From: Raillietiella orientalis
Lineage: Eukaryota
DNA length: 64,000 bases
Assembly: GCA_036172245.1 (NCBI GenBank)
Contig: JAYWIR010000052.1
Span: forward strand, 1-64,000
Reading direction: 5' to 3'
Positions 1-26,308 of this stretch are shown piece after piece. Every line of letters begins with the position of its first letter. The stretch's first letter is position 1. Under the pieces are notes generated by a model that was given only the letters and a program-made list of their open reading frames with translations, was not told the DNA's origin and did not search any database. The translations under genes were made by a program, and so were the position numbers.

Positions 1-2876
1 GATTGCGGAGGGTGACGCCTCTCAGGAATTCGCGAAGGTGTTCCTTCGCACCTGAGAGTCGCGTCCAGTCCCCAGGCAGACGCCACGCCCAGGATGGGGG
101 GCTCTTGTCGCGCGGGCACACCTCGAATATCAACCGGAAATGGTCAGACAGCTCCGACGCAACTTTCCCTCGTTTGCCGACCCGGAAACACAGGTCGACC
201 TCCAGGAAGACGTATTTGATGCTGCTGACCATTTCCGAAAGATCCCCTAACAAGTTGCGCGTGCGTATGGCGACGCACAACTCGTTAGCCGTTCGTTCCT
301 GTGCGTGTGGCTCACCTGATAGCAGGCGGAGATTAAAGTCTCCCGCTATCAGGTGAGCCACGCGCACGTTCGCTTCCACCAGCCAGTCGGGCTTCAGGGT
401 TTCCAGGAACGCCTTACGTTCCTGGTTCCCGGTAGGACCGCTCGGAGCGTACACATTTGTTACGACGAGGTCGATCGTGTCGGACCACCTGAGAATCAGC
501 TGGCCGACACGACCGGCTTCGTCGAAGCGCACGCCCTTCCCGGCTGCGTCGACTGCTGGCTTCATAAAAAACGCGACGACGCAGGTGTATCGGGTGCCGC
601 ATTGCCACATTAGCCGCCCCTCTGCGATCCTTCAGATCTCCTGGGCGTTCTCCGCGGTGATCACGTGGATCTCCTGCAGGAGCGCCAGCTCGAAGTCACG
701 CAAGGTGGCGGCCGTGTCCCGTCTGTTGCCATCGTCGCGCAGCCCGTTGACGTTCCAGCAGGCCACGCGTAATAGTGGGCGACAGGCGAGCCCAGGTGTT
801 ATTCCTGGGAAAGTGACAATGGGGCACCCGCCACCTGGTCGGGCGGACGGATGGAGGAATGGGATCACCGAGCACCGGTTCTCCCTCCTCCATGGGGGCC
901 GATTCCTCGGCGGACCGCAACGGTTGAAGGGGGCGGGTTTCACTACCTGCTCCCCTCTATCATAGGGGCCGATTCGTCGACTGCGCTGGACGACAGGGGG
1001 GAGCGGTTGTCAGCGGTCTGCTCCCCCTCCTCCATGGCTATCTCCTGAACTGATTCCACCGTTGGGAGGGGGCGGCAATCGCTCACCTTATCTTCCTCCT
1101 CCATGGGTTCGCCAGCTGCTCGGTAGCGGAGGGTGGGAAAATCCCTCCCTCCGTTCCCACGCTGCCGGCTTCCCCCTCGGTTGCCGGTGCGTCCCCCTCC
1201 TTCTTTGTCGGGATGCGCCTCTTTGGATTTTTGGACTTCCGTCCAGTCTTCTTCGGAGGCGCCTCCGCGGAGGAGGACGCACTTCCGGCATCCGGTTCAT
1301 GGTCACCTGTCGGAGGTGCCTTGCTCGCGGCCGGCCTTTGCAAGGATTTTCGCGCGCCGTTCTCACGCTCCGCGAGTTCGGCGGCGAGCTCTTCCGCCGC
1401 CTGCTGGAAGGCGGCGTCCTCGATTACGGCGAGAGCGTCGCTCGGCTCCTCCTCTGTTTGCACAGAGGGTTCGCCTTCCTCGATCGCGGCTTCGGCGTCA
1501 ACGAGGCGGAAGATATCTCCCCCGGTGGAGGTCTCGGGGATCTCCACTCGCTCTAAAGCGACCGAACATTCGCGGAGCAAAGCGCGGCGTTGCCTTCTAT
1601 TTGGAGAAGTTGTCGAGGGTTCCGCTGTCGGTTCTTCGGTTTTTCGGCTTATTTTACTTTTCGGCTTCGCTGTCCGCCAGTCCTCGTTGTCACCAGCGTC
1701 GTCGGGAGTTTTCTCGACCGCAGTTTGCTGGAAGCTTCCGGACTCTGGCTTTTTGCTTCACCTTTCCTTTGCTTCAGTGATCTTGCTTGTTTACTCCAAG
1801 CGTTTCCCCTTACCTTTTTTCAAGGCAGAGGGCGCTGGAGATTCCCGCTTTGGGCACACTCTTCGGAGGTGGCCCTTCTCCCCGCAGTGGAAACATTGGA
1901 TGTGAGGGCACCGTTTTTTCAGGTGCCCTGTTGCATCACAGTGCCCACAGTACTTGGGCTTGCCCACGTACCAGACTTCGACGACCTCGTTGCCGACGTC
2001 GAGTTTGTGGGGCAGCCCACCGTTTTCGTGGACCGTCACGCGCTGCAGCCATGCCACTGAACAGTATTCCGTATGTTTGGAAGACGTTGGGCTTGGTCAA
2101 GAGCGCGTGCACCGTACCATGTTTTTGCAACTCTTCTTGAACGCCAGCTTTGGTCATGAGAAGAGTTACACCGGTAAGGTGTGCAACAATGGAGCGGTCC
2201 TCCGTTACAATGAAGACCTTTCGGCCTTCCAGAGTGATGGGAGTGTTCAGCAGGCGTTGTGCCAGACTTGCATTTTCGCAAGTCAGCTTCACCCGCTGGC
2301 CCCCACTCATCACGGAGAGACCTTCCAGGTCTTCCTCTTTGACATCCAACCGCTGTAACTCTCTTTCAAAGTTACGAGCGGTGTTCCCCACAAACAGGTT
2401 TCCTACCTTGTAAATCAAGGACGGCTTGTATCCTTGTTCCAGGTAGGCCCGTTGTTCTGCAAAGGCAGCAGGAAATGGCGCTGCAGCCACGGAGCTCCAG
2501 GTCTTCGTGGATGGAGCAGGTGGATATAAGGACGCGGTTGCCTCCTTTTTCAAGGCGGCGGTTGTCCCCTTTTTCAAGGGGGCGGTTGCAACCTTTTGCA
2601 CCAGGACGGTTGCTCCCTTTTTCAAGGTGGCGGTAGCCCTCGTTTCCGGAGAGACGGTTGCCCCCTTTTTCAAGGTGGCGATTGCCCTCTCCTCCCTGGG
2701 GGCGGTTGGCCCCACATCAATGGGTTGGGGAGAGGAACAATCCTCTCCCCCGCCGACTTCCATCGCGGTGTCCTCAGGCATTTCTGCCATTGGACACCGC
2801 AGATGCTCCACACACAAACACTAACCAAGAAACGCTTTACAACAGGCGCAGGGGAGCGCGGTAAAAACACGTCCGC
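1..2876 (-). mobile_element. Tx1/L1-clade LINE copy A (5' end, ORF1, APE; continues past left edge), decayed
   Basis: 5' motif rc of aaaaacacgtccgc ends at 2876. ORF1 pieces 1936-2817, 1791-2057 (CGHCDATGHLKKRC and CFHCGEKGHLRRVC knuckles) and 1083-1580. APE start RVACWNVNGLRD...LLQEIH at about 632-799. Frameshifted. Confidence 0.9.
799..2790 (-). pseudogene. Copy A ORF1 (gag-like, 2 CCHC zinc knuckles), frameshifted
   Basis: Two CX2CX4HX4C motifs. The YLEQGY.PSL.YKVGNL block is shared with the ORF1s of copies D, F and J. Confidence 0.8.
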
Positions 2877-3635
2877 ACGCCAAGTTGCTAGCTAAGGTTT
2901 GGGCAGAGAGGTTGGGGCGGGTTGCCAACATATTCATCAGCCCGGAACAGACATATGCTGTTCCCGGGCGAAGCATGGAGGCGAACCTGTTCCACGCTTC
3001 CACCTGGCTAGAGCTCCAACAAGAAACGAACTTGGTGCGCAGCCGGAATTCCGGTGCGTGAGCCGGCAAGGGGTTGGATGGTCGGGTGGGGGAGGGAGCC
3101 CTTGCGGTCGCACTCGACTTGCGCAAAGCATTAGATTGCCTCGACCAGGATCTCCTTCTGGAGCTTCTGGAACGCTTGGCTTCCCGGCCTCATTAGTGGC
3201 CTATCTGCGCACCAGCTGGCGCGACGCGCTCATCAACTTTTCTTTCAGCGTGCAGACCGTGCACGGCGTGCCGGTGCGGCGTGGGATCCGGCAGGGAGAC
3301 AGCCTGAGCCCCTTGCTCTTCAGCACCTACTTTGAGTTGGTACTGAGAGCGTACAGGGGAACTCTGGCGCACCTGCCGCACGACTGTGCCGGGACGCCGG
3401 CGGTTTCAGCGTACGCGGACGACCTTCTGCTGCTGCTCCCTATGTCCACCCCGGCATCGGCGGTCGAGGAGTTCTTCGACCTGCTGCATCGGGGAACCGG
3501 ACTTACGGTGAACTGAACAAAGTCGTCCGTGATGCCAGTTGGTGCGGCGTGGTCAGGGCAGCAGGACTGGGTCCGTTTGGGGATCCCCACGGTGAGGTAC
3601 TTCAAGTACTTTGATGTGCCGTTGAAGGACTACTC
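2877..3635 (+). mobile_element. Tx1 RT fragment B
   Basis: AKLLAKVWAERL..EQTYAVPGRS, RRGIRQGDSLSPLLF, AYADDLLL, RYFKY; contains frameshifts and stops. Confidence 0.88.
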
Positions 3636-5596
3636 CCCTATTCTCCCTGCCCAGCATCCCGACAATCTACCCTGTGCACGCCGAAAAGATCCCCCGTTGT
3701 GCCACGGAAGAAATCAAGCGCGAAGGGCAAGGCACCATCGAGTGGCGGTCCCACGAAAAAGGGTGCGGTTGCTTCAGGGAAGCCACCATCCCAGACAGCC
3801 GCGCAGACGGGAAAGTTGCCACGTCGCCCTGGGGGCAAATCGCCCCCTTCGAAGCAGCCTAAGAGTGCGAGCACGCACTCAATCAAGGCTGCTGAACCGT
3901 CCGCGTACGCTTGCGCGTCCAGCGGAGCACACCGGAAACCGTTCGCGGGTACCCTCGGAGCTGCCTCTAAACGGCAGTCTCCTCCTACATCGGTGGAGAT
4001 CACGTCTTCCACGCCGAAGGCATGAGCAGAAAAGGCTGCAATAGCGCCTAGCGGGACGACGGCAATGACCGCCGTTTCGCCCGCATCGGCTAAGGAGCAG
4101 GTGCAGTGCGTAACGGGGACGGAGCCGTCTCCCGTTGCGAGCGCGAAACGTGAGCCGGCATCTCCGGCCAAACAATTGAGGGAGGCATCGGCCTCCCAGG
4201 AAAGCGTCCCCGACGCGGGCTGGACTCGCTTCTCTAGGACGCCCACAAAGGGGAAGAAGAGGGTTGACCCTTCAATATTCCCCATCCTTAAGGTGGATGG
4301 GAGGCAAAAGAGAAGCACGCCGAAGAAGGTGCGTACCCAGGTACGCACTATGGCTGCGTGCTCTGTCTCTGTCGCTTCGCGCGAGAGAGCAGCTGCGGAA
4401 GCCAATGTTCCGAAAGCTGCGTTGGCGACTGCGACGACCCCCGCGCGGGCAGGGCAAGCCTCCACCTGCCGAAACAAAAAGAGACTGGCAAAGCGCCAGT
4501 CTCGCGCCAGGCACTCGGACTCCGAGGTGCAGTCCGAGTGCAAACAAATGGAGCGCGCATCCCGGGGTAAGCCGGTAGCGCGCCGGGCTAAAGTGCGAAA
4601 GCACGAGCCTGTTGCCGGAGGCGGTTCCGGCTCCTGAACGGAGACCGAGGCGATGATTCTCGGCTCCCAGGACTCAGCTGGGCGCGATGTGGCGGCAAAC
4701 GGGAGCGATTCTGCTTCCCAATCCGCTCTCCTACCAGCTGACTTCTCGCCGGACGGGGCGAGGAGCACGCCGTCATGTCCGCAGCAGTTATGCGTGGACT
4801 CGCGTCCGCTTGTCGCGTCAGCGTGGCCTGTTGGAATCTCAACAGGCTGCGTGATGCTGACAAAAGGCGGACGGTAGCCAACGCTTTGCGCGCGTTCGAT
4901 CTGGTGCTGCTGCAGGAGATACAAAGCATCTCCGAAGGGCAGGCATCGGATATGGAAGAGCGCGCGGGCGGGACGCTACACTGGCGGCAAGGCTCCTCGC
5001 ACACGTGCGGATTCGCGTTCCTCGTAGGAGGCATGATGGCGGAGGCGGTGCGGTACGTTTGTTTCGACGAGGAAGGTCGTTTGGGCCAACTTGTCCTCAA
5101 GTGGTCCGAATCGATCGACCTGGTCGTTACGAACATGTACGCGCCGAGCGGCGGCCGGCATTACGCCCAGCGACTGGCATTCCTGGGTGGCCTGCGCAGC
5201 CGCTGGCTCGCTGTCTCCGGCCCTAACGTGGCGCACCTCCTAGCAGGAGACTTTAACGTCCACCTGCTAACAGAGGAGAGATGCCGCTTGAGGGAGAAGC
5301 AACTGGTGAGCGAGGTATGCGCGTCCGTGCGCGTGCAAAACTTGCTTGCTGGTGAGCCCGGGATGGAGAGATCGCCCAACCATTCGTTTCTCGATGAACA
5401 CCTGCTCTCACGAGTAGGTCGGAGAGGGCGCCTGCTATCCGCGCTTTCGGATCATCCGAGACTGGAATTCCAGCTTCTCCCGCCTGGCAAAGGGCCTCCG
5501 ATGAATGTCCGGAGGTTGCCGGCCGACTGGCTTAGCAATTCGGAGGCGGCGGAGCATCTTCGCCAACACCTCCGGGGCTTCGCTATCCGTGAACTC
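3636..5596 (+). mobile_element. Tx1 copy C: probable ORF1 C-terminus plus APE domain (left half of the element split by D)
   Basis: ORF 4775-5695 reads VACWNLNRLRD, LLQEIQ, NMYAP, LLAGDFN, SDH and ends at GFAIREL, abutting the 3' end of D. The ORF1 assignment of 3636-4790 rests on position and its basic, low-complexity character. Confidence 0.85.
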
Positions 5597-5846
5597 AATT
5601 TTTACCCGGTTGCGCCGGGGCGTTTATTCTTTGGAATAAAACAAACGTTGGTGGCTGACCAGGTGGTCCGGCCACGCTTTGGTATACAAAATTAAGCCTG
5701 CCGGGTCACCGGTTCGTATTCCGGCACGGTCCACCACGACAGCAGAGGGGCCAAGGACAAAACTAAAAATAAAACAAAAAAAAAAGAAATATATAAATTC
5801 AAGATCAGGGGGGCACGGGAAGGGATCACAGTCTGCTGTGGGGCCC

Positions 5847-8800
5847 TTACATCCTTTGCAGGATGCCGGCAAGCTGTTTTTGGATGTTTGAATCCAGATG
5901 GGTCCATCCTGTCGCCGTCCGCATAAATTCGGCTGCGCACTGGACGGCACCCTTATCGCGAGGTCCTCCCGTTGCTTTGCTCCATGCAGCGACGATCCCG
6001 CGAAAGCAGCACAAAGCTGCTAACGAGGCCGAGGGCCGAAGGGCGTCGGAAACGAAAAGGGATCTAATTGCGTCTCTGGGGTTGCCACAGGGGTTACCGA
6101 TTGCCGCGACAAAACGGTTCCAAAGGGGCCGAAGAGCCACACAATCCAAAAGGAGGTGAGTGAGAGACTCCCGTTCTCCACACCTCGCACAATTAGGGCT
6201 CACCGCTCCCCAGGTCCAATGGTGTCGGCGGGCGTTGCAGGGGAGTCCCCAATGCAGCAACAATAGCGCCGAATCCTGCCATTTTAAGGGGAGGATGGAG
6301 GTGTTCATCAGCACCGAGGGCCACTTTAATTGTTCCCGCGGAACATTTAGTAGCTCGCTCCAGCGCAAAAGTCCAATAGGGGTGGTAGTCCGGGCCGCGG
6401 TATCGCAGAGAATTCCCGTTTTCCATTCCCCGATCTTTTTCTCCGTACCGGAGATTTTAGCGTAAACATCCCATTTTGCAGCAGTGTTGCCGTTTAAATC
6501 CTCCGCGAGCGGAAACAGCATTGCAGTGAGGGGAGTTTCTCTTGCCCACGCTCGTTTTTGGGGGTTCTCCAGAGCGTCAGGCAGTCATTACGGGCGAAGA
6601 ATTGTCTCTGCCCTCCTTGGGTGCGTTGCTGGTTGCTCCTTGCCCATGTCTGAACCGTTTCCTGCAGCCATGCAGGTCCGTTAACAAGGCGACAGCAGAG
6701 CCATCCTGCTTTCTTCCTCATCAGGTCAGCCACTCTCCGTAGCTTCAACCCGCAGTGACCGACTTGGCGGCGCCGACGGAGCGCAAGGAAGTATGACAGT
6801 CCCACCTTGCCTGTAGCCTGCTCGACGAGGAGACGTGCGGGCTCGCACCAACTGCTACTCCAATATTTCGCCACTAGGGCGAGTAACCGAAACTGGAGCT
6901 GAAGCTCCAGCCGCTCTAGCGTCAGGAGGCCGAGACCGCCGTCCCGACGCGGAGCGCTCAAGTCCTCAAGCCGAACTCGGGCCCTCCCATTACCCCACAG
7001 GGCAATCCTTAGGAGGTCCTTCATCCGCTTTTTAGTCTTTGTGGTGGGGGGACAAACAAAAAGCAGTGAACGGAGGAGGGGCGCCGCGAATGCGTTCCAC
7101 ACCGCGGCCCGTTCCGGCAGGAAAAACCTGCGGACTTGGAACGGGCCAATCGCCGTCTCTACCTTTTAAAGGCAGCTGGACCACGCATCCGAAGGGAGAT
7201 AATCACCCATCGGTACACCAAGGTACTTGAAGTACCGTACCGCGGGGATCCCCAAACGGACCCAGTCCGGCTGCCCTGCCCGCGCCGCACCGATTAGCAT
7301 GACGGACGACTTCTCCCTGTTCACCTCAAGCCCGGTTCCCTGACTTAGCAGGTCGAAGAACTCGACCGCCGATGCCGGGGTGGACATAGGGAGCAGCAGC
7401 AGTAAGTCGTCCTCATATGCTGACACCGCAGGCGTACCGGGATAGTCGCGCGGCAGGTTCGCTAGAGTTTCCCTGTACGCTCTCAGTACCAACTCGAAGT
7501 AGGTACTGAAGAGCAAGGGACTCAGGCTGTCTCCCTGCCGTATGCCGCGTCGCACCGGTACGCCGTGCACGGTGTGTCCACTGAAAAAGATCTGGATGGG
7601 CGTGGCGCGCCAGCAGGATCGCAGATAGGTCAGCAAAGAGACCGGGAAGCCCAAGCGTCCCAGGAGCTCCAGGAGGAGCCTCTGGTCGACACAGTCGAAT
7701 GCTTTATGCAAATCGACTGCGACTGCGAGGGCTCCCTCCCTCTCCCAACCATCCCGTTTCCTAGCGGTGGACATTCCGGAAGTCCGGTTGCCCATCCTGA
7801 ATCTTTCCTCTTGGAGCGCGAAAAAGGTGCTGGCGAGTAACAGGTTGGCATCCATGCTCCGCCCGGGAACAGCATATGTCTGCTCCGGGATAATGAAGCT
7901 TTCCGCTAACCGCCCCAGGCGTTCAGCCCACAATTTCGCCAGCAACTTGGCGTCCGCGTTTATCACGGTAATCGACCGCCAGTTGCTCATGCTCCGAAGG
8001 TCTCCTCCCTTATGGAGGAGACGCACCTTTGCCGAACGAAACGAGGCGGGGACGTCGCCCGTTTCGCGGATCAGCAAGGTGAGTTTCTTCACCAGAGGAG
8101 TGAGCTCTGCCGCGAAACATTGAAAAAATTCCGCTGGCAGGCCATCCTCCCCTGGAGCCTTCTGCCTCTTGAGCTTTCCGATGGCCGAGATGATCTCGCC
8201 CATCGTGAAAGGCTCGTCGAGGGTCTTTCTATCTTCCTCCCCGATCGCCGGAGCGCCTTCCGGAAGAAGAAGTCGCGAGACATCCCGTTCCGGTGGAGCG
8301 CGCGCGTACAGGGAGGAGTGTAATTTTTTTAATAAGCGTTTTAACTGAGCGGGGGCCGAGTGCTATGAACCCTGGTCGTCCAGTAAGCTGGCCGACCCAG
8401 ATTGCCACGCCTGCCTCTCGGCTCCCGCACGGTATTCGGCTAGCCTGCGTACGTCTGGTGTTCGCGCGTAACATCGAGATTGTAAATACCATCTCTCGTT
8501 ACGCACGCTTTCACCAAACCCGGCAGGCAGGAGGTTCATAGGGAACTCGTCGCAAAAATTCCGGACCGAGCGCTTGAAGCGGTCCCAGTCCTGAAGCGTC
8601 TGCAAGCTGAAACCTCGTATGAATCCGCGGAGATGCTCTGCGGCTTCCGGAAGTTTCAGCCAGTCCCCCGGTAAGCGCCACGCAGATGAAGGCGGACCCC
8701 TATCGCGTGGGTGCTGGTCAAGAAACACGTGATCTATGCTGTCGTCCATTTCCGAATCTCCCGCGAACAAGTTGCGCGTTTGCATCTCTGCGCACAGCTC

Positions 8801-9322
8801 GTTCACGCGGTCCCGAAGTGTGTCGGACGCACCTGACAGCAGGCGCAGGTTAAAGTCACCCGCAATTAGGTGCGCTTTGCGCACTCCCGCTTCGTCCAGA
8901 TATTCGCGTCTCAGGGTAAGGAAGAAATCTCTCCTTGCCTTTGCCCTTAGCGCGTCGCTGCCGCTTGGGGCGTACACGTTGGTAATGACCAGATCGATGG
9001 AGTCCGACCACCTGATGGTCAACTGCCCGACGAGACCTGCACTATCGAACCGTACGCCCTTTGCCGCAGCCTCGACAGCTGGACAAAGCAGGAAGGCGAC
9101 ACAGCAAGATTTAACAACGCCGTAACTCCACAGCAGCCGTCCACCCGAGATACGCTCGATCTCCATTGCTTGATCTGCAGAGATGACGTGAATCTCTTGC
9201 AGCAGCACCAGGTCGGACGATGCCAGGGTGGAGGCCACGTCTCGTCTCTTGCCGTCGTCGCTTAGCCCGTTGACGTTCCAACAGGCAATTTGCAGACGGC
9301 GGCAAGAGGCGATTCCCGGCAT
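5847..9322 (-). pseudogene. Copy D ORF2 (APE endonuclease, reverse transcriptase, C-terminal zinc finger), frameshifted
   Basis: ORFs 8363-9322 (CWNVNGL, NVYAP, AGDFN), 7166-8203 (KAPGEDG, DLHKAFD, GIRQGDSLSP, YEDD in place of YADD, YLG), 6494-7102 (GGLGL) and 5847-6521. Confidence 0.92.
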
Positions 9323-10948
9323 TAAGGCTGGAAACGTGGCTTTGCAGCACCTGTCAACGGACAGGTGGGAGGGACGAGTAAGGGGACCGCGGCCATCTCA
9401 GGCACTTGAAGCACCTGGGGCACAGACTCTACCCTTTCCCTCCCTTCGTGGTCGCAGCGTGGGGTTACCTCTCGAAAAGAGTCCCCGGAGTTCCCCACTT
9501 TATTGGAACGCTCGCTTCCCTCAATTACCTCTTCCTTTTCGACGTACGGGATAATTGTGCGGGTAGCCTTCCTCGTGCGATTGGCCTTGGTGCGGAAGAC
9601 CTCGATGCCGCAGGCTGTGTTTTCCGCCTCTGCGTCAGAGTTCGGAATCTCCGACTTCTTGATCGAGGTCGGAAGCCTTAAGGTTTTTTTCGCGGATTTA
9701 ATGGGACGCTGCAAAGACGCAGCGAGCTCCTCCGCCGCTCGCTCAAAGGCGACGTCCTCGAGCATGCGTGCGACGACCGACGTCAGCGCCGGGTCGATAG
9801 CCTCCGGCATTAATTTGCCGGAGGGCTGAAATTCGGCAGCGACGACTGCAATTTTGCCGCTCTGTTCGACGGCAGGAATGCGCTTGATGACGACAGAGCA
9901 GCGTTTGATATTTTCGCGACGCGGCAAATTCTCGCTGCGTTTCGCGACATTTATTTTGCTTCCTTGAGGCTTTCCTGCCTCTTGGATTTTACTACCTGCC
10001 ATCCAAGTTCCTGGCCGTCCTCCTCGACCTTGTCCGAGTTTTCCAAGATCTCGGAGCTGACCTTCACCTGGGGCACGATAGTTGTTTTTCGAGCGGCGGC
10101 TCGCTCTCGGGCTGCCTGAACTCGTCTTTTTCTCGCCGCGCGCTTCTTCACATTCCGTGCGGACGCGACGCGGACTTCATTTTGCGGGCACACTGGAAGA
10201 GTGCGCCCGGGTTGCTTGCATTGCTTGCACTGCAAGTGGAGGCACCTTTTTTTCAGGTGACCTGAAGTGCTGCAATGCCCGCAGAAATGCGGCTTACCGA
10301 CATACCAGATGACAACGGGTTCGCCGTTGACCTCCAGCTTGTTAGGTAGGGAGCAACCCTCGCGGACCGTGATGCGCGCGGAAGCCATACCGCTATTCAG
10401 GAGATCGTACTCCTAAAACGGAGTCGGCCTTTTTCACAACGCCGGACAGTTCGAAATTTAACTAGTTTTTTTCGGACAGCCTCTTCGGCCATCCGGAAGG
10501 TGATTCCGAGAAGGTGCATCACGATAGATCTATCCTCCGTGATGGGGAGGAGCCGGCGATTCCCTAAAAAAACAGGTGTACGGAGCATACGCTGGGCGAG
10601 ACTTGCTTCTTTGGAAATCACCTCAACGTACTGCCCACCACTCCTGATGGTCATCGACAAGAGCTCCTCCTGGGGTACTTTGAGGGAGTGCATCGCTTTC
10701 GAGAAAGCGCGTGCACTCTCAAAGGAGTAAAGGTTGCCTACCTTGTAGAGTAGAGGGGGATGGTACCCCTCCTCCAGGTAGGCTTTTAACTCAGCCGCAG
10801 CCGCTTGCGTTGGCGCCGCAGCCACGAAACTCCAGCTTCTCCATAGCGAGGGAGTCGCTTCTGTGGGGGCGGTTGCCCCCACATCCATTGATTCAGGAGG
10901 CGACATAGACGTCGCCCCCTCCTTAACATTGGTGGTGGTCCCAGGCAT
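9322..10948 (-). pseudogene. Copy D ORF1 (zinc knuckles), frameshifted
   Basis: ORFs 10397-10948, 9951-10388 (CGHCSTSGHLKKRC, CKQCKQPG) and 9322-10002. Confidence 0.82.
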
Positions 10949-11050
10949 TGCTGCCTAGCCACCACCGAATCCACTGGCACACCAAGAAAAAAAAGAAAAA
11001 AAAGTAAATCACAAACGCTCAAGAGCGAAACAAAAACCCGTCCGCTCTCG

Positions 11051-15194: not shown

Positions 15195-15203
15195 CCTCGA
15201 GAT

Positions 15204-17301
15204 CATAAGGCGTTCGACTGCGTGGTCCAGGACGTTTTTTTGGAGCTCCTAGATCGCATGGGCTTCCCGCCCACCTTGTTCACCTACCTTCGCTCCTGCT
15301 GGCTCCATGCGATAATTTCCGTCTCTTTCAGCAGTCAGAAGTTGCATGGCGTGCCTGTGCTGCGGGGCATAAGGCAGGGCGACAGCCGCAGCCCCCTGCT
15401 CTTTAGCACCTACTTTGAATTGGTGCTGAGAGCATACAGGGTGACTTTGGCCCCCTTGCCGAGCTCGTACCCCGGCATGCCCGCCGTAGCGGCGTACGCC
15501 GATGATCTTCTGCTGATGTTACCCATGTCCACCCCGGCACCCGCAGTCGAGAATTTCTTCGATCTGTTAAGCCTCGTGACGGGACTGCGGGTTAACAGGG
15601 GAAAGTCGTCGGTGGTGGCGGTTGGTGCGACGTGGGCTGGACGGCCTGACTGGATCCGCTTGGGGATCCCCGCGGCCAGGTACCTGAAGTACCTTGGCGT
15701 TCCGTTGGGGGACTTCTTCCTGTCAGAAGCCTGGTCAGGTCGTCTCCGAAAAGTGGAGTCGGCGATCTGCCCGTTCCTGGAGGGCAAGTTCCCCTTGCCG
15801 GAACGGGCCGCGGTATGGAACGCGTTCGCGGCTCCCATCCTTCGCCCCCTGCTTTCTGTTTGCCCGTTCCTACCCAGTTGAAGAAGAGGACCAAGGACCT
15901 ACTCCGTATCGCCCTCTGGGGCAAGTGGAGGCCTAGAGTGCCTCTGACGGACGGCACTCCGCGTCGGGACGGCGGTCTTGGTCTCCTGACGCTGGAGCGC
16001 TTGGAAATCCAGCTGCGATGGCGCACGATGGCCATCGCGGCGAAGTTCTGGAGCACCACTTGGTGCGTTCCGGTTCGCCTTCTTGCCAGCCGTGTCTCCA
16101 GGACGCAAGGACTGGCGTCTTGTCTTCTTTGCTCCGGCCGGAAGATGCGAAGATGCGGCCTGCTCCTTGAACGCATGTCCACCTTGCCTAAGGAGAACGG
16201 CTGGATGGTATGCAGCCCCGCCAACTCCTCCGAATGGCTGGAGGAGACTGCTGGCACGTGGGCGAAGATAAATGAGAGGAGCCACGAAACGTGGAACTGC
16301 CTGCGAATCGGTTTCTATGCCCGCCGCACTCTGCGTGAAATTCTTCAATTTCCATCGAGTTGCTCGTGGGCGGAAGGGACACCCCTTGCTACGGCGATGC
16401 CCTTCCTCCAAAGGGCGCTTCACGAAAGCCGGAAGCCAAGGTGGCAAGTCTGCTGCCGTATCGCAGGCAGAGAGATGATGAGCGGCTGGACCATGAGAGA
16501 GCTGACAGATGCTACGACCCCAAGTGTCCAGCCGCGTGGATTAAGAAGATGGGGCGAGCTGCTCGGCATTCGATTGGATGACCTGAAGTGGCCCCCTGTT
16601 CTACTTGGTTCCAGGATTCTTCCCCTGAAGTGGCAAGAATCGGCGTTTCTGTGGCTGCATTGGGGTCTACCTTGCAACGCGCGCCACTTCCACTGGACGC
16701 GGGAAAGAGTAGGTCCTGCGTGTGCAAGGTGTGGGGAGCCGGAGTCGCTCCCTCACCTCCTAATTGACTGCCGTGCCGTCCGGATTCTTTGGGATCGTCT
16801 TGGAACGGCCTTCGGTATACCGGAAGGTGGCAACCCCAGGAATGTTTATAGCCTTCTCTTCGTGCGGGACGCCCTCAGTCCAGCCGCAGCCCTCGCAGCA
16901 CTTTGCTGCATCCGTGGTATCGTGGCGGCCTGGAGTAATGCCGAAGATGAAGATTCCACCGCAATGGACGTCATCCCATATGCTTTTCGCTGCCTGCGGA
17001 GAGCTATTGGATGGCCCCAGCTGGGAAGATTGAAGGAGGACCTCGAGGATGTCCTACTAAGGAAGGACCCTCCTCCCAGTGGACTATGATCCCTTCCCTC
17101 CAAAAACTGTTTTTTTTTACTGATTTATTTTTCTTTTTGTTTTCACCCCATCCCCTTCCACTGCCGAGGAGAGTCACACCGGGCTGCGTCCCGGTGTCCC
17201 GGCAGGTCCGGAATTAAGTGGCCGTTAGTGGGGCCTTGTACCACGTACTGTAATGACGAATGAAACGTTTTTTTTTAATAAACGTCCCGGAGTACCCGGG
17301 T
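15204..17301 (+). mobile_element. Tx1 copy G: RT core to 3' end
   Basis: HKAFDC; ORF 15222-15881 (GIRQGD, YADD, YLG); ORF 15815-17089 (CARC..HLLIDC); 3' end aataaacgtcccggagtacccgggt. Confidence 0.92.
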
Positions 17302-17425
17302 GGCATCGCCGAAACCTGGAGGAAGTTGATGGATGGGGAACTGGTCGCAGATCTCGCGGACTGAGCGTTTTATTTTATCCCAGTCAGCGAGAGTCTGCAG
17401 TTCGCAGCCACGCAGGAATGATCCT
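17302..17425 (-). mobile_element. Tx1 fragment K (post-APE linker)
   Basis: Minus strand reads SFLRGCELQTLADWDKIKRSVREICDQFPIHQLPPGFGDA, matching D GFIRGFSLQTLQDWDRFKRSVRNFCDEFPMNLLPAGFGES. Confidence 0.8.
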
Positions 17426-17429
17426 TGAT

Positions 17430-20400
17430 CCTTTCCCTTAGGTATCCATCACGAACACTTCCGTATAGGTATTTGTTCGATGATCCTTGGGTAAGGCTTT
17501 GCTTGAACGTATTCTATATTATTTTATCAATCTTGGCCCATGACGATAGTGGATTCGTGCCAAGACGAAGGTCGTGCACTAATGATGGCACGAAAAAGCA
17601 TTTAATCGAGTCCAGTTTCTGCTATGGGGCTAAGGGGGAGACAGCAGTGATTTTGAAATGGGCAATGAGGGTATCCACGTTTCCGTCGTACATGAGTGGA
17701 TCGAAGCCATTCGGTTTTCCTAGGTAATTATAAGTATCTTGTTGGTAAAGGGACGGAATTATTGCACCGTTCACAGATATTGGGGAACTCCGCACTTGAG
17801 ACCGGGAAGCTACGTAGTGATAGGAGCTGCGCTTATTGGGATTTATTTGCAAGTTTGCAGCTCAGGTTGAATCTGCCACTGTGGTGACGGCCAGTTGTAG
17901 CTCCTTTATCGAACTAGCAACAAGCGCAACATCGTGTACATCAGCAAGCAGAATAATAGAGGGGGGTTGGTGTTTCAGGATTCTGATAAAGGGTTCCAGA
18001 GCGATTTTAAATAGGAGCCCACTTAGGGGGCATCCTTGGCGCACTCCGGAACGAATCGGTATTGCGATCGTAAGTCCATCCGAAGCCACTATCGTTGTCG
18101 TGGATTCCGAATACATTTCCGCAATGATTCCCTGAAACTAGCTCCTAGCACGGTCAACTTGTCTAGAATGAACTGCTGGGGGATGGAGGTGAATCCGTCT
18201 TTCAAGTCTATCCATGCAATTGCGATGTCTTGGTGGTGCACTCGGGAGCGCTCGAGTGCAGTGGTCAGGACAAAGTTTTCCTCCAGCACGCCACCATAAG
18301 GAAGAAATCCCTTTTGATAGTGCCCAAGGATTCCGTTGTTGAGAACGAGCGCATTCTTTTCGCAAGGATTTTGCAGAATAGTTTGTCAATGGTATTGGAG
18401 ATAGCGATGCAGCGAAACTGCATTACATCTGCCGGATGAGATGCTCCAGATTTAGAGATTAGGACTGTGCATGATGTTTTCCAGTTATTAGGGATACGCA
18501 AGTGACGGAAATATGAATTGTATAGGGCTGCAAGACAAGGTCCGTCTGGGTCTCCTTTCCAATGGATGCAGAACGAGATCCCGTCATTTCCTGGGAAAGT
18601 GTCTTGGAAGTTCCTTAATGTCAACAGGACTTCTTCAGGGTTGATGTTTGCACAGTTCACTTCCGTAGAAGCCAGGTTTAAAGGGTTTTCCTTGAGTGTG
18701 GCCGCATTTATTATCTTTGCTGAGAACTTTTCACTATAAATTGTTGGAACCATGGATTTATAGCCGTCAAATTGAATGGGATTCGGGTGAAGAAGAGTGC
18801 GAATGGCTCGTTTTCGGTTTCGACGATACAGGGATTGAAGTAGTTTCGGAGAGGTAAGGTGAAAGGCATTAGAAGAGGATGCAGGCCTTGTGGAAGGGTT
18901 AAATGGGTATATTTGGAATGCAGAAGTTATGGTATTCATAATTTTGTTAAGGGTATCCAGGGTACTTTGCCAAGTGTCCAATAACACTCATCTCACGTCG
19001 ATTGTGTAAGGGTCGTGAGGATCGGAGTGTAAGAACTAAGGACGGAGTGTGTGCTCGTGTGTAGTATATGTTGGGTGTTTGGCAGAACCTGCTGTGCTGC
19101 GGAGACATAGGGTGCTGGTTCGCTGGCTGAGTGCAAGGGGTATAAGGCATTTGGGTGAATCGGTTGTGCTTGCTGTTGTGAGGCTTCAGAGGAAGATTAA
19201 TTTGATGGAACCATGGGAGGTACTGATCCGGTTGACGTACAGGCTGTTGTAGGATAGGATGCGCTGTTTCTGTAGCTACAGTTGTGGGGGGTTCGGGTGT
19301 CGCTATCGTATCAAAACGGTTAAATGTGGAGATCGGACGAGAAGTGCGAAATGGGGAGAGGGGTTTGTTGCTTTGATTTTGCCGGCGTATATGCCATGTA
19401 TGTGATTCTGTAATCCACGCATAGAAGGAAATGTGGTCATACAGTTAGGAATGTTACATTGAGAAGAAAGAGGGACCGTGGGTGGTTGAGGGAGAGTGAA
19501 GTGTTTGAAGCACGGGTGATGTTGATTAGGATAGGAGACATCGGGGTAGCATTTCCTACAGAGTAATCTGTGCTTCTGAAAAGAAAGTTTGTTTGCTGTC
19601 TTCAAGCGACGTTTAAGAGAACAAAGTGTGTTGCTGGCATCGAGAGTTTGTATTTGCCAGGGACAGGAAGGTATTATGCTGCTTAGGGTACGGGATACGG
19701 GAAATCAAACCAAAAATACGTTGGTGTAAGGTGTAAGAGCCACATCATCGTTGGCAATTGGTGGGAGTGGGAGGTTCGTGATTGGAGGATAGTAGAACGG
19801 GAGGTGGTTGAATGAGAGGCTGGATAGCCAAGAAGGGTCCGATTGGGTGGTGGTGCAGCTAAACAGTGTCTAGAGGATCGAAGGAGTCTAGGTGGTACTG
19901 GATTGCGATGATACTTTGAAGAAGGTCTTTTGTGCTGTCGAGAAATGGAAGGTGAAGAGGAGGTGTGTGGTGGATGCAGTGAGGAGTGGGAGGCAATTGT
20001 TTTGTTTGTGGGTCGCTGGAAAGAAATTTTGTTGTTTGGAGCTATCCACGGTGTGTGGAGCGCTCGCCACAGGTAAAGCTTTGCATGGTGTTTCGATCGA
20101 ATCGGGGATCTTTCCGAGGGATCGCACTTCGGTGGAGTATTTTTCGCGGAAGGAGTTGCGGATGCACGGATGCAACCGCTGAGGGATAGCTTCTCGAAGG
20201 GCACGAGTTGTTCTAAGGCGAATATAAGGTGGGTTGGGGGCATAAATAGGATATTTTGTAGTTTGTTCTAGAGATGAAAAAGGGATACTGCAGTTTGTAG
20301 GAGAAACAGAAAGGCACGGTTTGAGGAAAGAGTTTGCCTCAGGATTAGATTGAACAGGATTAAGTGAGGACTGAATAAATGCCTTCTTCTTAAGTTTTTC

Positions 20401-21400
20401 CATTCGAATAGGGGGCGAGCGAACACTAGAACGTGCAGGAAGTTGTCTTGTTATTGGGGATTTCCTGCAGGCTGAAGATGATTCATGTTCCCAGCTCAGG
20501 AGAAAGTTATGAAAAGATTTCCTATGCATTACTCGGAGCTGACGTTTTAAGATGTCTGCATATGGGGGAAGAGATGACGGAGCTTTCAGTGTGGAAGATG
20601 GGGTACTTCCACTTGGGGTAACTGTTGAACGGATTTTCTTGGTCATCGGATGAATATCCTGTTTGTTCGCTATCTTCGAAGTTGCTTCAGCGAGCGAGCA
20701 TGCAGAGAATTGAACAGAAAGTTTGCTTCGAATTTCCAGAGGGATAGCTTGAAACGCATCCTCATTGTCCCGCAATATCTTCACAGCTACCTCAGGAGAA
20801 GGAGATGTATTCGCATCGTGCGACGCAGGCGTTAGGAGAAGTTGTTCGAGGATGTCGCTCGAGGATGTACATGAGGCTATTTTCGGAGATTGGGGCAAGT
20901 TTGAGTCTTCTAGGGATTTTAGGGGGATATCGTCTACCGGCTGTTCAAAGAACGCTGAATGACTTGGGCTGGCTTCCTCATGAAGAAGTTCAAACTCAGA
21001 TAGTTTCTTGAATTTTGAAGTGCCTTGCACGCTTTGGTTGTGCTTCACGCGGAAACCTTTGCGGTCGAAGCTACAGGTACAGAACGCACAGGATAACTTC
21101 AAGTTTTTCAGGGAGAGCGGAAGTTCCAATGTTCGAGTGGATTGAGTGCACTTATGAGAAGCAGGAGAATATTTCAGAAGGTCAGCAGTAAAGTTGCATT
21201 CATTACAAAAGTAAAAAGCAATTTCGGGGGTTACACCATGGATGCGTGAGATATGGTGTTTCAGGCTTCTGGAGCGATTGTACGTTTCTTCAACTTGCAT
21301 CCCTCAATTGGACATGGGCATGGTCGTGGAAGGGAAACACATAGATATAGGCATCTGTCGGAGTCTAAGAAGGTGAGCTTGGAATTTAAATTTTCCATGT
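17430..21400 (-). mobile_element. R2-superfamily non-LTR retrotransposon (Utopia/NeSL-like), decayed and 3'-truncated
   Basis: N-terminal zinc fingers (CPIEGC..LKHHISRIH; CNIPNC..RGLQNHIH). RT motifs YRRNRKRAIR, PGNDG, WKTSCTVLISK, AWIDL, SGVRQGCPLSGLLF, YNYLG, SPLAP. No endonuclease domain is visible before the break. Confidence 0.8.
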
Positions 21401-21989
21401 TAACCGTGTCATGAGGCAAAAAAAATTACATCGGACGAAAGGTCAGTGGACATCCTTAAGAATTACTGCGAAACCTTCAGAAGTACAGACGCGAGCGCGA
21501 GCGCCATGGACATGATAGAAAAGAAAGTTTTCCGAATACGAGACAGCGCGTGAATACTTTTGTATGCACGAGCAGTGTATAAGCGCAATACAGGAACGCT
21601 GTCACGTGACTAGCGCGCAGTGCGGGTGTGCTACAAGCAGGCCACGTGGGCACGCCGCCATCTTGGAAATTATCAATGGTTGCAATAGCATTGTACGTAA
21701 ACGCACTTTTCACTCCCAATTTTGCAAAGTATCAAATGTTTTCAAAAATGAGCGCAAACTTAGCGTTAATCAAACTTATGCAATGTCTTGATAGCGAAAA
21801 AGCAAAAACCACTACCTTGGCCAACAGCTCTCTAGTGAAACTATGGCAGCTACGGGCGACCAGAGGAAAATCCGGATTTCCGCAACACTAACTAAAGCAC
21901 CACACTATTTTTCCGTGTACAGCTATAGGTACGTATATAGGTATCACAAAACGGTGAATGATCACAAGTCGTGGCGAGGAAAGTTTTGA

Positions 21990-22038
21990 ACACTACTTGA
22001 ACTTCTACACGGCGGAGCTGCGCTCAAACACGTCTCGC
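21990..22038 (-). mobile_element. Tx1-type 5' terminus remnant (probably the 5' end of K)
   Basis: ttctacacggcggagctgcgctcaaacacgtctcgc resembles the F terminus (ttctggcacgaggagcaccgagaaaacacgtccgc) and the A terminus. Confidence 0.5.
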
Positions 22039-22081
22039 CGTACAGGCTGATGCTGGCAAACCTGCCGAGCTCTTGTCCAGG
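22039..22081 (+). mobile_element. 43-bp Tx1 RT fragment L
   Basis: YRLMLANLPSSCPG matches E YRMTLGNLPSSCPG. Confidence 0.75.
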
Positions 22082-22660
22082 TTTTTCACCCGGGTAAGCC
22101 GGGGCTTTTATTATTAAAATTTTACAATAATGAATTTCATAATAAGGTCTTGTCTGATGTAGCTATGTTTCAGTCAGAACACATCGTTCTCACTGTCTTG
22201 GGCACTTGTCCTTTCCGACCGGCAGGCCCGTAAGATCCTCACCACTGGCGAAGGGGACGGGAAAAACAAAAAAAAAAGAAAAAAAGAAAAACGCCTGGAG
22301 GGCAATGTTTATGGGGAGGGGAGGGAAGGAGGGATCGCAATACGCCGTGGGGAGGCCTTTGCATCCGGGTTTGGATGCGAACAAGTGCAGGCAGAACTTT
22401 ACTTAGCCGGCGCCAACGGGAAGCCTTCTCCATGGAGATGGCTGCCCAGTGGATGGCATTCCGACTCCTCCGTCCTCTCCTGGTTGCGGTCCACTTATCC
22501 GAAATTCCGCTTATGCAACAGAGAACTGCGACACACGCGGCGGCTGGCATGGCGTCCCGCATGAGGAGGCGTCGAAAAATGTTTCTAGGGTCGCCCACCG
22601 GAATGTTCAGGATCGACGAGAGTCGATTCCACATCTGGCGGAGGGCAACACACTCGATGA
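22082..22660 (-). mobile_element. Tx1 3' fragment H
   Basis: ORF 22239-22634 is homologous to the ORF2 C-terminus; 3' AATAAA, hairpin and A5. Confidence 0.85.
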
Positions 22661-24519
22661 TTTTTCACCCGGGAAGCCAAGGCTTTTATTATTAAAAAAT
22701 TTTACAATTATTAATTTCTGTTGTCTGTATCTGTGTTGCAGTCAAAACACATTGTTGTTATTGTCTTATGCACTTTTCCTTTCCGACTTGTATGCCGGTA
22801 AGGCTTTCTCCACTCGCGAAGAGAAAAAGAGAAAAAAACAAAAACACAAAAAAGAAAAACGCTTGGGGGACAGTGTTTATGGGGAGGGAAGGGAAGGGAA
22901 GGGATCACTGTTCGCCACGGGGAGGCCTCTGCATCTGGTTCTGGATGCGAACAAGTGCTGGCAGAATGCTACTTAGCCGGCGCCAACGGGAAGCCTTCTC
23001 CATGGAGATGACTGCCCAGTGGATGGCATTCCAACTACTGCGGCTTCTTATTGACGCGTTCCACGTGTCCAATATTCCCCGTATGCAGCAGAGAACTGCA
23101 ACACACGCGGCACTTGGCAGGGAGTTCCGCATCAAGAGGCGACGAAAAATATTTTTAGAGTCGCCCATCGCTACGTTTATGGCCGAGGAGAGTCGATCCC
23201 ACATGAGGCGGAGGGCGACAGACTCGATTAGTAAGTAAGGGAAGGTATCCCTTTCCTCGCACTCTGCACAGTGGGCATCCAATCTCCCCAATGTCCAGTG
23301 AGACAGGCGTGCTCTGCTGAAAAGTCCCCAATGGAGCACAAGCTGCGCCGTCTCCTGCCAATCCAAAGGGAGGGTGCCGTTGTTCCAAGACGCTGGAGAC
23401 CACTTCACCTCCTCCGGAGCCATGCCGAGCAACTCGACCCAGCGCACAATTCCATCTGGCGGGACACTCGGGGTCGTAGCGTCCGCTAGTTTCCGTAACG
23501 TCCACGCCTTCATCAGTTTTTGCCTGCCTCCGATGAGGCAAGACACTTCATACGATGCCTCATCTTGGCTGTCCCTGACTTCTCTGAGGGAGGGCAGCAC
23601 GGGGGCAGGGGGGGTGAATGAAGGCCACAAAAGCTTTTGTGGGCTGGAAACGATCGTCCGCAGGGGCTGGCCAGCGTTCCTGCCTCGACGGAGGCAGGAG
23701 AAGTCCACCTCGCTGGAGCCGCTGATTTTTGCCCACGCGGAAACGGACTCCTGGAACCAGGTAGTCTAGTTTGCGGGGCTGCAGGAGATCTACGGATTGC
23801 TCCTCACCAGCGCAACCAGGTCACGTAGCTGAAACCCACAATGGTACAGTCTACAATCGTTGGCTACTAGGATTGAAGTCAATCCGTTGCAGCCGGTTGC
23901 CCTATGGGCAAGGACTCGTATGGGCGCACACCATGGTGCTGTCCAATATTTTGCCGCAAAGGCAAGTTTTCTTAGTTGGAGCTGACGCTCCATGCGCTCC
24001 AACGTCAGGAGACCAAGTCCACCGTCTCTGCGTGGAGCGCACAAGTCTTTCAGTCAGACGCGGGGCCTCTGGTTACCCCAAAGGGCTTTCCTGATGAGGC
24101 CCCTTGTCCGTGTCCTAATTTGGGGAGGGACAGGGCACACAAAAAATAAAAGGAGAAGGAGGGGGGCCGCAAAGGCGTTCCACACCGCGGTCCGTTCCCG
24201 CAAATAAAACTTGCCATCCCGGAACGGGCCGATCGCTAACTGCACCTTTTGAAGACGGTCGGACCAGGCTTCTGCAATGCAGAAGTCCCCCAACGGAACG
24301 CCAAGGTACTTGATGTACCCGCCCGTGGGGATTCCCAAGTGGATCCAGTCCGACCGTCCTGCCCGCGACGAGTCCGAGAAGATGATCGACGACTTCGTCC
24401 TGTTCACCTCGAGGCCTGTCCCGCGGCGCAGCAACTCGAAGAAATCCTCGAGCGCCGATGCCGGGGTGGACTCTGCGAGCAGGAGCAGAAGGTCGTCGGC
24501 ATACGCCGACACGGCAGGT
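22661..24519 (-). mobile_element. 5'-truncated Tx1 copy I
   Basis: PAVSAYADD, YLG, GGLGL and CAEC in ORFs 24054-24512, 23790-24044 and 22905-23708; 3' hairpin and A5. Confidence 0.88.
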
Positions 24520-26308
24520 CATCGCCCCAGGAGAAGATGTAAGTGGGGGCTCTTGCCCCCACTGATGCGCCCCGGTCCCTACCCAGGGCATGGACTCCGT
24601 GGCTGCAGTGTCTACGTCGGTGGTCATGGCGGGAATGAAAGGCTACCTTGAGGAGGGGTACGATTCACCCCTCCTATACAAGGTGAAGCATTTGCATTCC
24701 CCCGAGAGTGAGCGCGCTTTCCTGTAGGTGGTGTGCGCTCCCAATGTAAAAACGGAGTAGCTTCTGTCTATGTCCATCCGAAGAGGGGAGAATTTGTGGA
24801 AGTCATCTGCAAGGAAGCAACTCTTGGGCAGAGACTTCTTAGGAGTCTCGTTGCGATGGGAAACCGGAGCATTCTCCCGGCAACGGAGGACCGATCCGTG
24901 ATCGTCTACCTGATCGGTATCACGTTTCGGACGACTAAAGAGGCCATCCGAAACGAATTATGGATATTTACGTTGGAGCGCATGAAACAGCAGCTCCAAT
25001 TCAGAATACTCGCCCTTGCAGTGATATTTTGGACGTCGCCATGGTGCGTTACCTCACGCCCTCTCGCGAGTAGGGAGACCGGCTGCTGAGGATTGACTTC
25101 GTTCCTTGTCGCTAACCAACGCAGTCTGAACCATTGTGGTTTTCAGCTGCGTGACTTGGTTGCCCTGGTGAGGGAGAATACGTGGATCCTCTGCCTCCCG
25201 CTGAACTGCACTACCTGGCTTCAGGAGTCCGTTTCTGCGTGGGCCAAGATCAACTTGGCCAGGGATACGAACTACTCATGCCACCGTAGAGGCAGATACG
25301 CTGGACAGCCACTGTAAGAGATCGTTTTCACGAAAACTGCTGTGGGCTTCATTTACCCCTTTTGCTCTAGTACTTCCCTTCCTAAGGAACGCTAGGGGTA
25401 GCCAGGAAGAGGTACCGTGGGAAGCGTCCTGTTTCATCGGAGGCGGGAACAAATTGCTAAAGTCGTGGACATCTCGGAAGCTAAAGGGCGCGGCAACCCC
25501 GGATGTCCAGCCTAAGGGACCCGTGCCCTGGGGCGAGCTGCTCAGCATACAGGATGAAGTGAACTGGCCCTAGAGCGTTGGGCCAACGGCACCCTCCCCT
25601 TGGATTGTCAAGAGACGGCGCTGCTAGTGCTGCACTGGGGACTCCTTTGCAGAGCACGCCTGTCTCAATGGACTCGTGGGAGTGTGGATGTCACTTGTGC
25701 AGGCTGGGAGGAAAGGGGAACCTTTCCCCACTTGCTAATTGAGTCTGTCGCTCTCCGACCCATGTGGGATCGAGTGTCGGTGATCTTGAACATTCCCCAG
25801 GGCGACCCGAAGGACATTTTCCGTCGCCTCCTGATGCAGGATGCTTTGCCAGCAGCCGCGTGTGTGGCATTTCTCTTCTGCATACGCGGGATCCTGGCAA
25901 AATGGACTGCGTCCAACAGAGGATATAACAGCCGTAAAGTTATCCACTGGGCGGCTCTCAACATTGAGAAAGCTTTCCGATGGTCCCGGCTGAGACCATT
26001 ACGTCTGGCACTCATCCGCATCCTGAACAGGATGCAGAGGACCACTCAGAGCGAACAGTGATCCCTTCCCAGCCCTCTCTTCCCCAAAAACAATTCCCTT
26101 CCTTTGGTTATGATTTTTCTGTTTTTCTTTGTGGTTTTTCCCTTCCCCATCGCATCCAGGAAGGATCTCTGCGGCCTACGAACCGGCAGCGGCAAGTGCG
26201 TCCAGATAGGCAGAACCTCGTGTTCTGCCTGCACTTTAACATACCGAGACTTTATTATGAAATTTTTATTGTAAAAATTTTAATAATAAATAATCCGGGT
26301 GATAATAA
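24520..26308 (+). mobile_element. Internally deleted Tx1 copy J (ORF1 N-half joined to ORF2 C-terminus and 3' UTR)
   Basis: YLEEGYDSPLLYKV and VEVICKEA (ORF1) join at about 24965 to TLERMKQQLQFR (ORF2); ORF 25600-26061; 3' UTR similar to H and I. Confidence 0.82.

Follow-up and report, generated by a model that had tools for sequence, protein, structure and literature searches.

The contig JAYWIR010000052.1 of the Raillietiella orientalis assembly GCA_036172245.1 carries at its left end a dense nest of long interspersed nuclear elements (LINEs), retrotransposons that lack long terminal repeats (LTRs), and this nest is the subject of the present analysis. Within the window, as the whole analysed stretch of 64,000 nucleotides (nt; positions 1 to 64,000 of the forward strand) is termed here, positions 1-26308 are made up throughout of pieces of such non-LTR retrotransposons, comprising 14 fragments that derive from at least nine insertions. 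The fragments were mapped by tblastn, phmmer and self-blastn, using the one full-length copy, D, as the ruler, and positions within an element are given below as D-coordinates (for example, D2463). The initial annotation, which was made from the letters alone, had described this region as a nested LINE array. Its fragments and their strands were reproduced by the tblastn and phmmer comparisons, and the protein domains found in them are those of the L1 superfamily.

Composition of the nest and its surroundings

A Pfam scan of stop-to-stop open reading frames (ORFs) identified RVT_1 (E 3e-19), Exo_endo_phos (E 5e-9 and 2e-7) and zf-RVT domains in four of the 12 nest ORFs. The zf-RVT domain (PF13966) of D scores 27.5 bits, a value equal to the cutoff of 27.5, and the corresponding Pfam E-values of the E, G and I ORFs are >0.01, these ORFs aligning to the C-terminal region of D. 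In both D and C, Exo_endo_phos precedes RVT_1, which places an endonuclease of the apurinic/apyrimidinic endonuclease (APE) type N-terminal to the reverse transcriptase (RT) in ORF2. When solved structures are compared, the RT of D matches human L1 ORF2p with an E-value of 5e-36 and R2 proteins with one of 3.5e-12 or weaker; the best solved relatives of its endonuclease are L1 endonucleases, at a weak E-value of 2.6e-4. Together, the RVT_1, Exo_endo_phos and zf-RVT domains and the affinity to L1 ORF2p indicate that the nest family is, as judged from its sequence, an APE-type LINE of the L1 superfamily. ORF1 matched no Pfam family. One or two CCHC knuckles are present in the ORF1 of A, D and F, which would fit the ORF1 of Tx1-type elements, and ‘Tx1’ would be a plausible label for the family on these features.

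Protein searches returned 13 relatives, one of them close and unnamed (P0001, 75% identity, on a 2.9-kb contig) and the other 12 at no more than 34% identity, and generic RT clusters were the sole matches in a protein atlas search. An Rfam search produced no match, and no family copies were found in a search of viral contigs. A scan of metagenomes for the pattern of the conserved 3′ box (see below) yielded 20 loci, none of which has LINE homology (0/20; best tblastn E 0.7). These loci were rejected as family copies, their sequence context resembling that of unrelated, mostly bacterial, hairpins, and a 26-residue Streptomyces match in a genome-contig search was discarded as spurious. Neither the nest nor the 118 ORFs in the remainder of the window showed LTR elements, DNA transposons or further coding transposable elements.

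The nest opens with A (1..2876, minus strand), which continues beyond the left margin of the window, has an intact 5′ end at 2876 and extends in D-coordinates from the 5′ end to beyond 2454. It comprises an endonuclease region (5-862), a linker and an ORF1 whose two CCHC knuckles lie at 1854-1949. In the N-terminal part of this ORF1, a 24-bp unit is repeated in tandem (7.5 copies, 68% matches, 2534-2713), the number of repeats being different in a contig of the public run X1, and a 67-bp near-palindrome (82% self-complementary, 301-367) lies inside the endonuclease region. B (2877..3639, plus strand) is an RT fragment (~D3091-3858) that has no terminus of its own and is 80% identical to D in nucleotides. 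A same-orientation join connects it to X+C (3640..5596, plus strand; ~D420-2463), the 5′-truncated left part of an element referred to as C/E, which consists of a low-complexity ORF1/linker remnant, X, and an endonuclease region (4781-5599). X (3640-4780) has no convincing ORF1 or linker match on either strand, the best E-value being 1e-4 without composition correction, and it shares a short Gly-Trp motif within a basic stretch; because neither this match nor the motif is convincing, the plus orientation of X is given as tentative.

D (5597..11050, minus strand) is the sole complete element, with a length of 5454 nt; its 3′ box and tail occupy 5597-5625 and its 5′ motif ends at 11045, followed by five extra bases. 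The right part of C/E is E (11051..14008, plus strand), which runs from D2463 to the end and contains the RT, the zf-RVT region and a 3′ box and tail ending at 14008. Next to it, F (14009..15194, minus strand; D1 to ~1165) is 5′-intact and 3′-truncated and holds a 5′ untranslated region and an ORF1 with a CCHC knuckle, G (15195..17301, plus strand) is 5′-truncated, extending from ~D3340 to the end (3′ box at 17301), and M (17302..17430, minus strand) is a piece of ~125 bp from the endonuclease-RT linker (~D2422-2550; E 2.6e-15), the right boundary of which is located to 17420-17445. Beyond K (17431..22038, minus strand), L (22039..22082, plus strand) is a 44-bp RT fragment (D3577-3618) that is nearest to E. 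H (22083..22661, minus strand) is a 5′-truncated 3′ end (D4899 to the end) with 79% nucleotide identity to I and is situated at the T-run of the I tail in the same orientation, I itself (22662..24518, minus strand) being 5′-truncated (~D3622 to the end) and bearing a 3′ box at 22662. At the right-hand side, an ORF1 fragment, N (24519..24963, plus strand; ~D145-600), is followed by J (24964..26308, plus strand; ~D4123 to the end), which covers the RT thumb to the C-terminal part, has a degenerate 3′ box and adjoins non-LINE DNA at 26309. At 24952-24975 the ORF1 sequence of N reads in frame into the RT thumb of J, as would be seen in an internally deleted copy without ~3.5 kb or at a template-switching junction.

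The low-GC element K differs from all of these. Its GC content is 0.45, against 0.57-0.63 for the family, with a GC skew of +0.34 on the plus strand; the N-terminus of its RT is 22% identical to that of D in amino acids, and its RVT_1 score (28.6 bits) falls just below the cutoff. The element is 3′-truncated at ~D4130, its first ORF, of 471 residues, has no Pfam family, and a Pfam-level scan detected no endonuclease. Despite this divergence, the 5′ start of K resembles that of the GC-rich family, and its 5′ end, which the initial annotation had flagged as uncertain, can be placed at 22038 by this family-like motif. K had, however, also been counted there as a member of the same family and, with such an RT and no detected endonuclease, it is evidently not of the family of D.

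Pairwise nucleotide identities among the copies are only 65-80% (self-blastn). In 18 of 20 pairwise codon comparisons the ratio of nonsynonymous to synonymous substitutions (dN/dS) is 0.13-0.52 at dS values of 0.3-2.3, the other two pairs being saturated. Such low dN/dS at high dS means that the lineages were long separated and kept working; at the level of these codon comparisons, the copies are thus shown to be long-separated lineages that evolved as working elements, under purifying selection, before landing here. That their ORFs are still long suggests a fairly recent landing at the locus.

The nest ends abruptly to the right. In the remaining 37.7 kb of the window (26309-64000) no LINE similarity was detected by phmmer, or by blastn and tblastn with 250 nest ORFs (0 hits). 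Approximately 10 kb from the nest, a multi-exon gene for an OATP/SLCO-type transporter occupies 36000-51750 on the minus strand, with introns of 1-5 kb; it is recognised by the OATP profile in six ORFs together with a Kazal domain at 40871-41200 (6+1 of the 118 ORFs). Inside this gene region, a 75-bp unit is repeated in tandem (2.5 copies, 98% matches, 48438-48621). Further along, an exon of an SLC12A8-like cation-chloride cotransporter (62057-62542, minus strand) is 57-60% identical to its counterparts in termite, cockroach and mayfly, and 50-57% identical to those of crustaceans and ticks. The neighbouring DNA is ordinary, with transporter genes of arthropod type, and the identities of the SLC12A8-like exon, the sole clue to the host within the window, point to an arthropod-like animal. 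The presence of several LINE lineages in one 26-kb locus beside normal genes, and of none in the next 37.7 kb, argues for the locus being a preferred landing place, with which targeting of LINE DNA and a tolerated hotspot are both compatible.

Termini, junctions and the insertion of D

A 5′ start motif is common to all four intact 5′ ends (A, D, F and K), with 13 invariant columns in the four-way alignment. At the 3′ end the layout is AATAAA, a short CCCGG/CCGGG inverted repeat, a T and a few A-rich bases, and this box (AATAAA..CCGGGT plus a short A-rich tail) is present in five of the six ends (D, E, G, H and I), that of J being degenerate. The initial annotation had described these ends as hairpins. 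A conserved 3′ box is indeed present but the hairpin is not well supported, as minimum-energy folding gives the 5-bp stem at three of the six ends, with z-scores from -1.6 to +0.9, none significant, and covariation analysis revealed no compensatory change, the stem being conserved as sequence. The 3′ element is treated here as a putative recognition box, not as a proven hairpin.

Every authentic terminus adjoins another LINE fragment. B, E, G and M begin 0-7 nt from the adjoining terminus, the ORF1 frame of F is open up to base 14009, that is, up to its junction with the E 3′ end, and L matches the RT of E at 34 of 42 nt, a score that none of 75,300 background 42-mers reaches (maximum 24). In the 3′ flank of J no LINE similarity was found. 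The orientations initially assigned to the nine junctions were all reproduced in the fragment map, and the accompanying count, eight of nine junctions and seven of eight independent events in antisense, stands as regards these orientations and the 7/8, but the junction of the H 3′ end with L is probably not an independent event because H sits in the T-run of the I tail in the same orientation. It is most simply explained as an older junction between the I 3′ end and L to which H was added in tandem. Counted in this way, the total of events is unchanged, but the sense event becomes a tail insertion of the kind known from the Zepp elements of green algae.

Four further joins (B/X, M/K, I/N and N/J) are non-terminal, and three of them are same-strand; the caveat, raised from the outset, that a non-terminal sense junction exists between B and C is borne out by the join of B to X+C in the same orientation. 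C/E is flanked in sense on its 5′ side (by B) but in antisense on its 3′ side (by F), so these flanks do not come from one host. F and K are 5′-intact yet 3′-truncated, and such pieces are not produced by target-primed reverse transcription (TPRT), nor are the missing halves located where nesting predicts. Plain nesting consequently needs extra deletions or pairs similar to those of twin priming. Two coincidences of coordinates were also noted, with L ending at D3618 and I starting at D3622, and K ending at ~D4130 and J starting at D4123; ~0.4 such coincidences are expected by chance among the 15 boundaries, by our own estimate. K and J were rejected as one twin-primed element (D4130/D4123), as the K RT is ~22-25% identical to the family and J is 72% identical to I in nucleotides. 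L and I may derive from one inverted element (D3618/D3622).

For D, the state before insertion can be observed. In X1, the one public DNA run retrieved for the window, with a share of 0.10, 122 of 182 contigs are 90-95% alike to the window and represent other copies or a relative, and one run X1 contig joins 5593 to 11051, that is, C directly to E, skipping 5594-11050 with three shared bases. These bases match the 3-bp duplication CTC that flanks D on both sides (5594-5596 and 11051-11053), which proves that D is an insertion into C/E. The first-strand nick fell in the middle of CTCGAG on the sense strand of the host, with a second cut staggered by 3 bp. Across the six 3′ junctions, no common nick-site sequence was found, as the initial annotation had stated, and insertion at one defined target is not observed. 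The primer-strand ends differ from one another and are not T-rich, so that annealing of the tail does not choose the site.

Readings of the nest

All tests of orientation and position are post hoc, having been chosen after the data were seen, and they concern one locus. Among independent events, 7/8 are antisense (one-sided P = 0.035 by the binomial test proposed in the initial annotation, applied to the window). At the 3′-end, or priming, junctions the figure is 4/5 (P = 0.19) and, when all adjacent fragment pairs are considered with D counted once, 8 of 12 are opposite-strand (P = 0.19). One window holds too few insertions to show opposite-strand seeking. The antisense preference proposed at the outset is not established by these figures; the 7/8 is post hoc, the pairwise excess is weak, and the tally would drop to about three antisense against two sense events if each head-to-head 5′ junction arose in one event and tail insertions are included.

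The reading we prefer, at roughly an even chance of being correct, is that of a retrotransposon nest in which long-diverged L1/Tx1-type LINE lineages and one unrelated LINE (K) integrated repeatedly by TPRT at one locus, the opposite-strand excess being the product of chance and event geometry and not of a targeting rule. New ribonucleoproteins would integrate by TPRT and, as its conservation suggests, would recognise the 3′ box. The locus, or LINE DNA itself, would be a preferred landing place, as for Zepp, and some copies would enter in tandem at the A-rich tail of a resident, as with H behind I and possibly F and G behind E. The F and K pieces and the four non-terminal joins would then stem from insertion-associated deletions or inversions, or from double priming akin to twin priming. 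The self-targeting LINE of the initial annotation is retained in this account as a possibility, in so far as, within the window, 26.3 kb are entirely LINE and the adjoining 37.7 kb gave no hits; the inclusion of K in one family and the antisense rule are not.

Several observations weigh against this reading. None of the parses of the array that were tried by hand works without two to four ad hoc deletions or unusual pairs, plain nesting requiring at least three later deletions. The hosts of the seven antisense events were struck at D-coordinates 1165, 2463, 2550, 3091, 3340, 3577 and 3618, six of which lie within 1155 nt (P = 0.011 by uniform simulation), so the target positions are less scattered than had been claimed; with K and I merged as one locus, the clustering is 5/6 (P = 0.036). 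Each of the four intact 5′ ends faces an RT fragment head-to-head (range test P = 0.03). In addition, CTCGAG, of which there are eight copies in 26.3 kb, starts 1 nt (D, 11051) and 2 nt (F, 15196) beyond two of the four 5′ junctions and may represent a weak endonuclease preference. Clustering, head-to-head 5′ ends and CTCGAG were all singled out post hoc, yet jointly these hints exceed what we would expect of a random pile.

Part of this pattern also underlies the foremost alternative. Here, the LINE machinery would prime from the sense strand of a resident element, chiefly within the linker between endonuclease and RT and the first half of the RT gene, with recognition being regional or structural and independent of any short motif, so that new copies come to lie antisense in old ones. 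Besides the orientation of the events (7/8) and the clustering of their sites (6/7), it is favoured by the positions of D in C/E (D2463) and G beside M (D2550), which imply that two hosts were struck 87 nt apart, by the lack of a common nick-site sequence at the six 3′ junctions and by primer ends that leave no role for tail annealing in picking the site. However, the sample is tiny, post hoc and from a single locus, the unrelated LINE K has the same geometry, the 5′ flank of C/E (B) is in sense, H is in tandem with I, and the 3′ halves predicted by simple antisense nesting are missing from F and K. Moreover, in a large published data set on human L1-in-L1 nesting the bias is the opposite one and is ascribed to nick-site composition (PMC2836564). 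This alternative is accordingly judged unlikely, and equally doubtful is its wider form, in which motif-free antisense homing would be a property of an animal L1/Tx1-type LINE clade whose nests are alternating-strand stacks, the antisense counterpart of tandem Zepp arrays.

A further possibility, to which a rather small probability is assigned, is that each of the head-to-head pairs A.B, F.G, K.L and I.N arose in one event by twin priming, partly in trans. At a staggered break, one DNA end would prime at the 3′ end of a LINE RNA and the other at an internal position of the same or a second LINE RNA, copying it as far as its 5′ end, such that the 5′ junctions would be internal and would not reflect nesting. 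This would account for F (1 to ~1165) and K (1 to ~4130) being 5′-intact yet 3′-truncated, and for each of them facing a 5′-truncated partner. Within A/B, F/G and I/N, the two segments cover separate element coordinates, and the geometry of twin priming, in which an inverted 5′ segment meets a direct 3′ segment head-to-head, is seen in F.G, A.B and K.L and, in mirror image, in I.N. Twin-priming intermediates of L1 on two separate DNA ends have been observed (bioRxiv 10.1101/2024.12.14.628481). When tail insertions are added to the pairs, the whole array parses with two target deletions, giving the tally of three antisense to two sense mentioned above. Classical twin priming, though, involves one RNA and adjoining coordinates, whereas those found here are 1165/3340, 600/3622 and 4130, which overlaps 3577; K and L clearly belong to different lineages, this origin would be required of four of the ~9 insertions, and the CTCGAG beside the F 5′ end resembles the genuine target site of D.

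It is improbable that the nest is a passive trap, a locus resembling a PIWI-interacting RNA (piRNA) cluster at which insertions that occur anywhere were retained or selected only here, a dual-strand cluster imposing no orientation. Clusters of the piRNA type are common in arthropods, and the spread of fragments over both strands, with six on the plus and eight on the minus strand when C and E are taken separately, and the unrelated LINE K in the same pile would suit such a locus, but the nest contains only LINEs, an apparently normal multi-exon gene lies ~10 kb away, and a trap predicts no pattern of orientation or position. Least credible of all is an assembly artefact in which some junctions are chimeric joins of repeat copies: four joins are non-terminal, and among the pieces of run X1 listed (8/191) the D empty site is the sole junction bridged, but nine junctions coincide to the base with conserved ends of elements, which is not expected from misassembly, and copies only 65-80% alike are too divergent to collapse.

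Significance and comparison with known LINEs

What lies at the locus is a real, clean, Zepp-like LINE nest of an arthropod LINE family not described before. If accumulation is all that it records, it represents ordinary, though clean, LINE-in-LINE nesting by such a family. If, on the other hand, self-nesting is a targeting property, behaviour like that of Zepp would be extended from green algae to animals, and the family would provide a tractable transposon that limits damage to its host by landing in its own dead copies. Should the antisense and regional biases be real, they would point to a motif-free way of choosing the target strand; antisense homing, if true, implies that structure or a transcription-linked state of LINE DNA (e.g. 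a displaced sense strand) is recognised, and not sequence. To our knowledge, motif-free choice of the target strand is not a feature of any described APE-type LINE. Keyword searches of open-access text found no description of an antisense-homing LINE, which is not proof of its absence in print.

Most target-specific LINE families fall into three groups, among them the Tx1 clade (PMC4640811). In common with the nest family, Tx1L, Keno, Mutsu and their relatives are APE-type LINEs. They differ in that each cuts a single defined sequence, located in a multicopy gene or repeat, whereas here the six nick sites are without a common sequence and hosts were struck at seven coordinates.

Human L1 provides a second point of reference, its ORF2p being nearest to the RT of the nest family. 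For L1, an orientation bias in nesting has been documented, as have inversions at the 5′ end, deletions of the target and local inversions; L1 insertion is accompanied by local deletions, inversions and twin-priming intermediates (bioRxiv 10.1101/2024.12.14.628481), and the counts quoted for L1-in-L1 nesting are 21,559 in sense and 9,899 in antisense (PMC2836564). This bias towards sense, of 2.2:1, contrasts with the mostly antisense nest. Furthermore, L1 depends on T-rich primers and on a poly(A) tail, whereas the nest family has a conserved 3′ box or hairpin, a tail that is very short, primer ends rich in GC and a 3-bp duplication.

A further parallel is with the Zepp and ZeppL elements of Chlorella, Coccomyxa and Chlamydomonas, whose nested clusters arise by the targeting of existing copies and take the form of tandem arrays of 3′ ends (PMC8226300, PMC3446292). 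As in the nest, these are LINEs of the L1 superfamily that form GC-rich nested clusters with few or no copies outside them (here, within the window). The two systems nevertheless differ in architecture, since Zepp clusters are described as tandem and as consisting mostly of 3′ ends, whilst the nest alternates in orientation, with only H behind I in tandem and eight of 12 adjacent pairs on opposite strands. They also differ in their hosts, which are green algae for Zepp and an arthropod-like animal for the nest.

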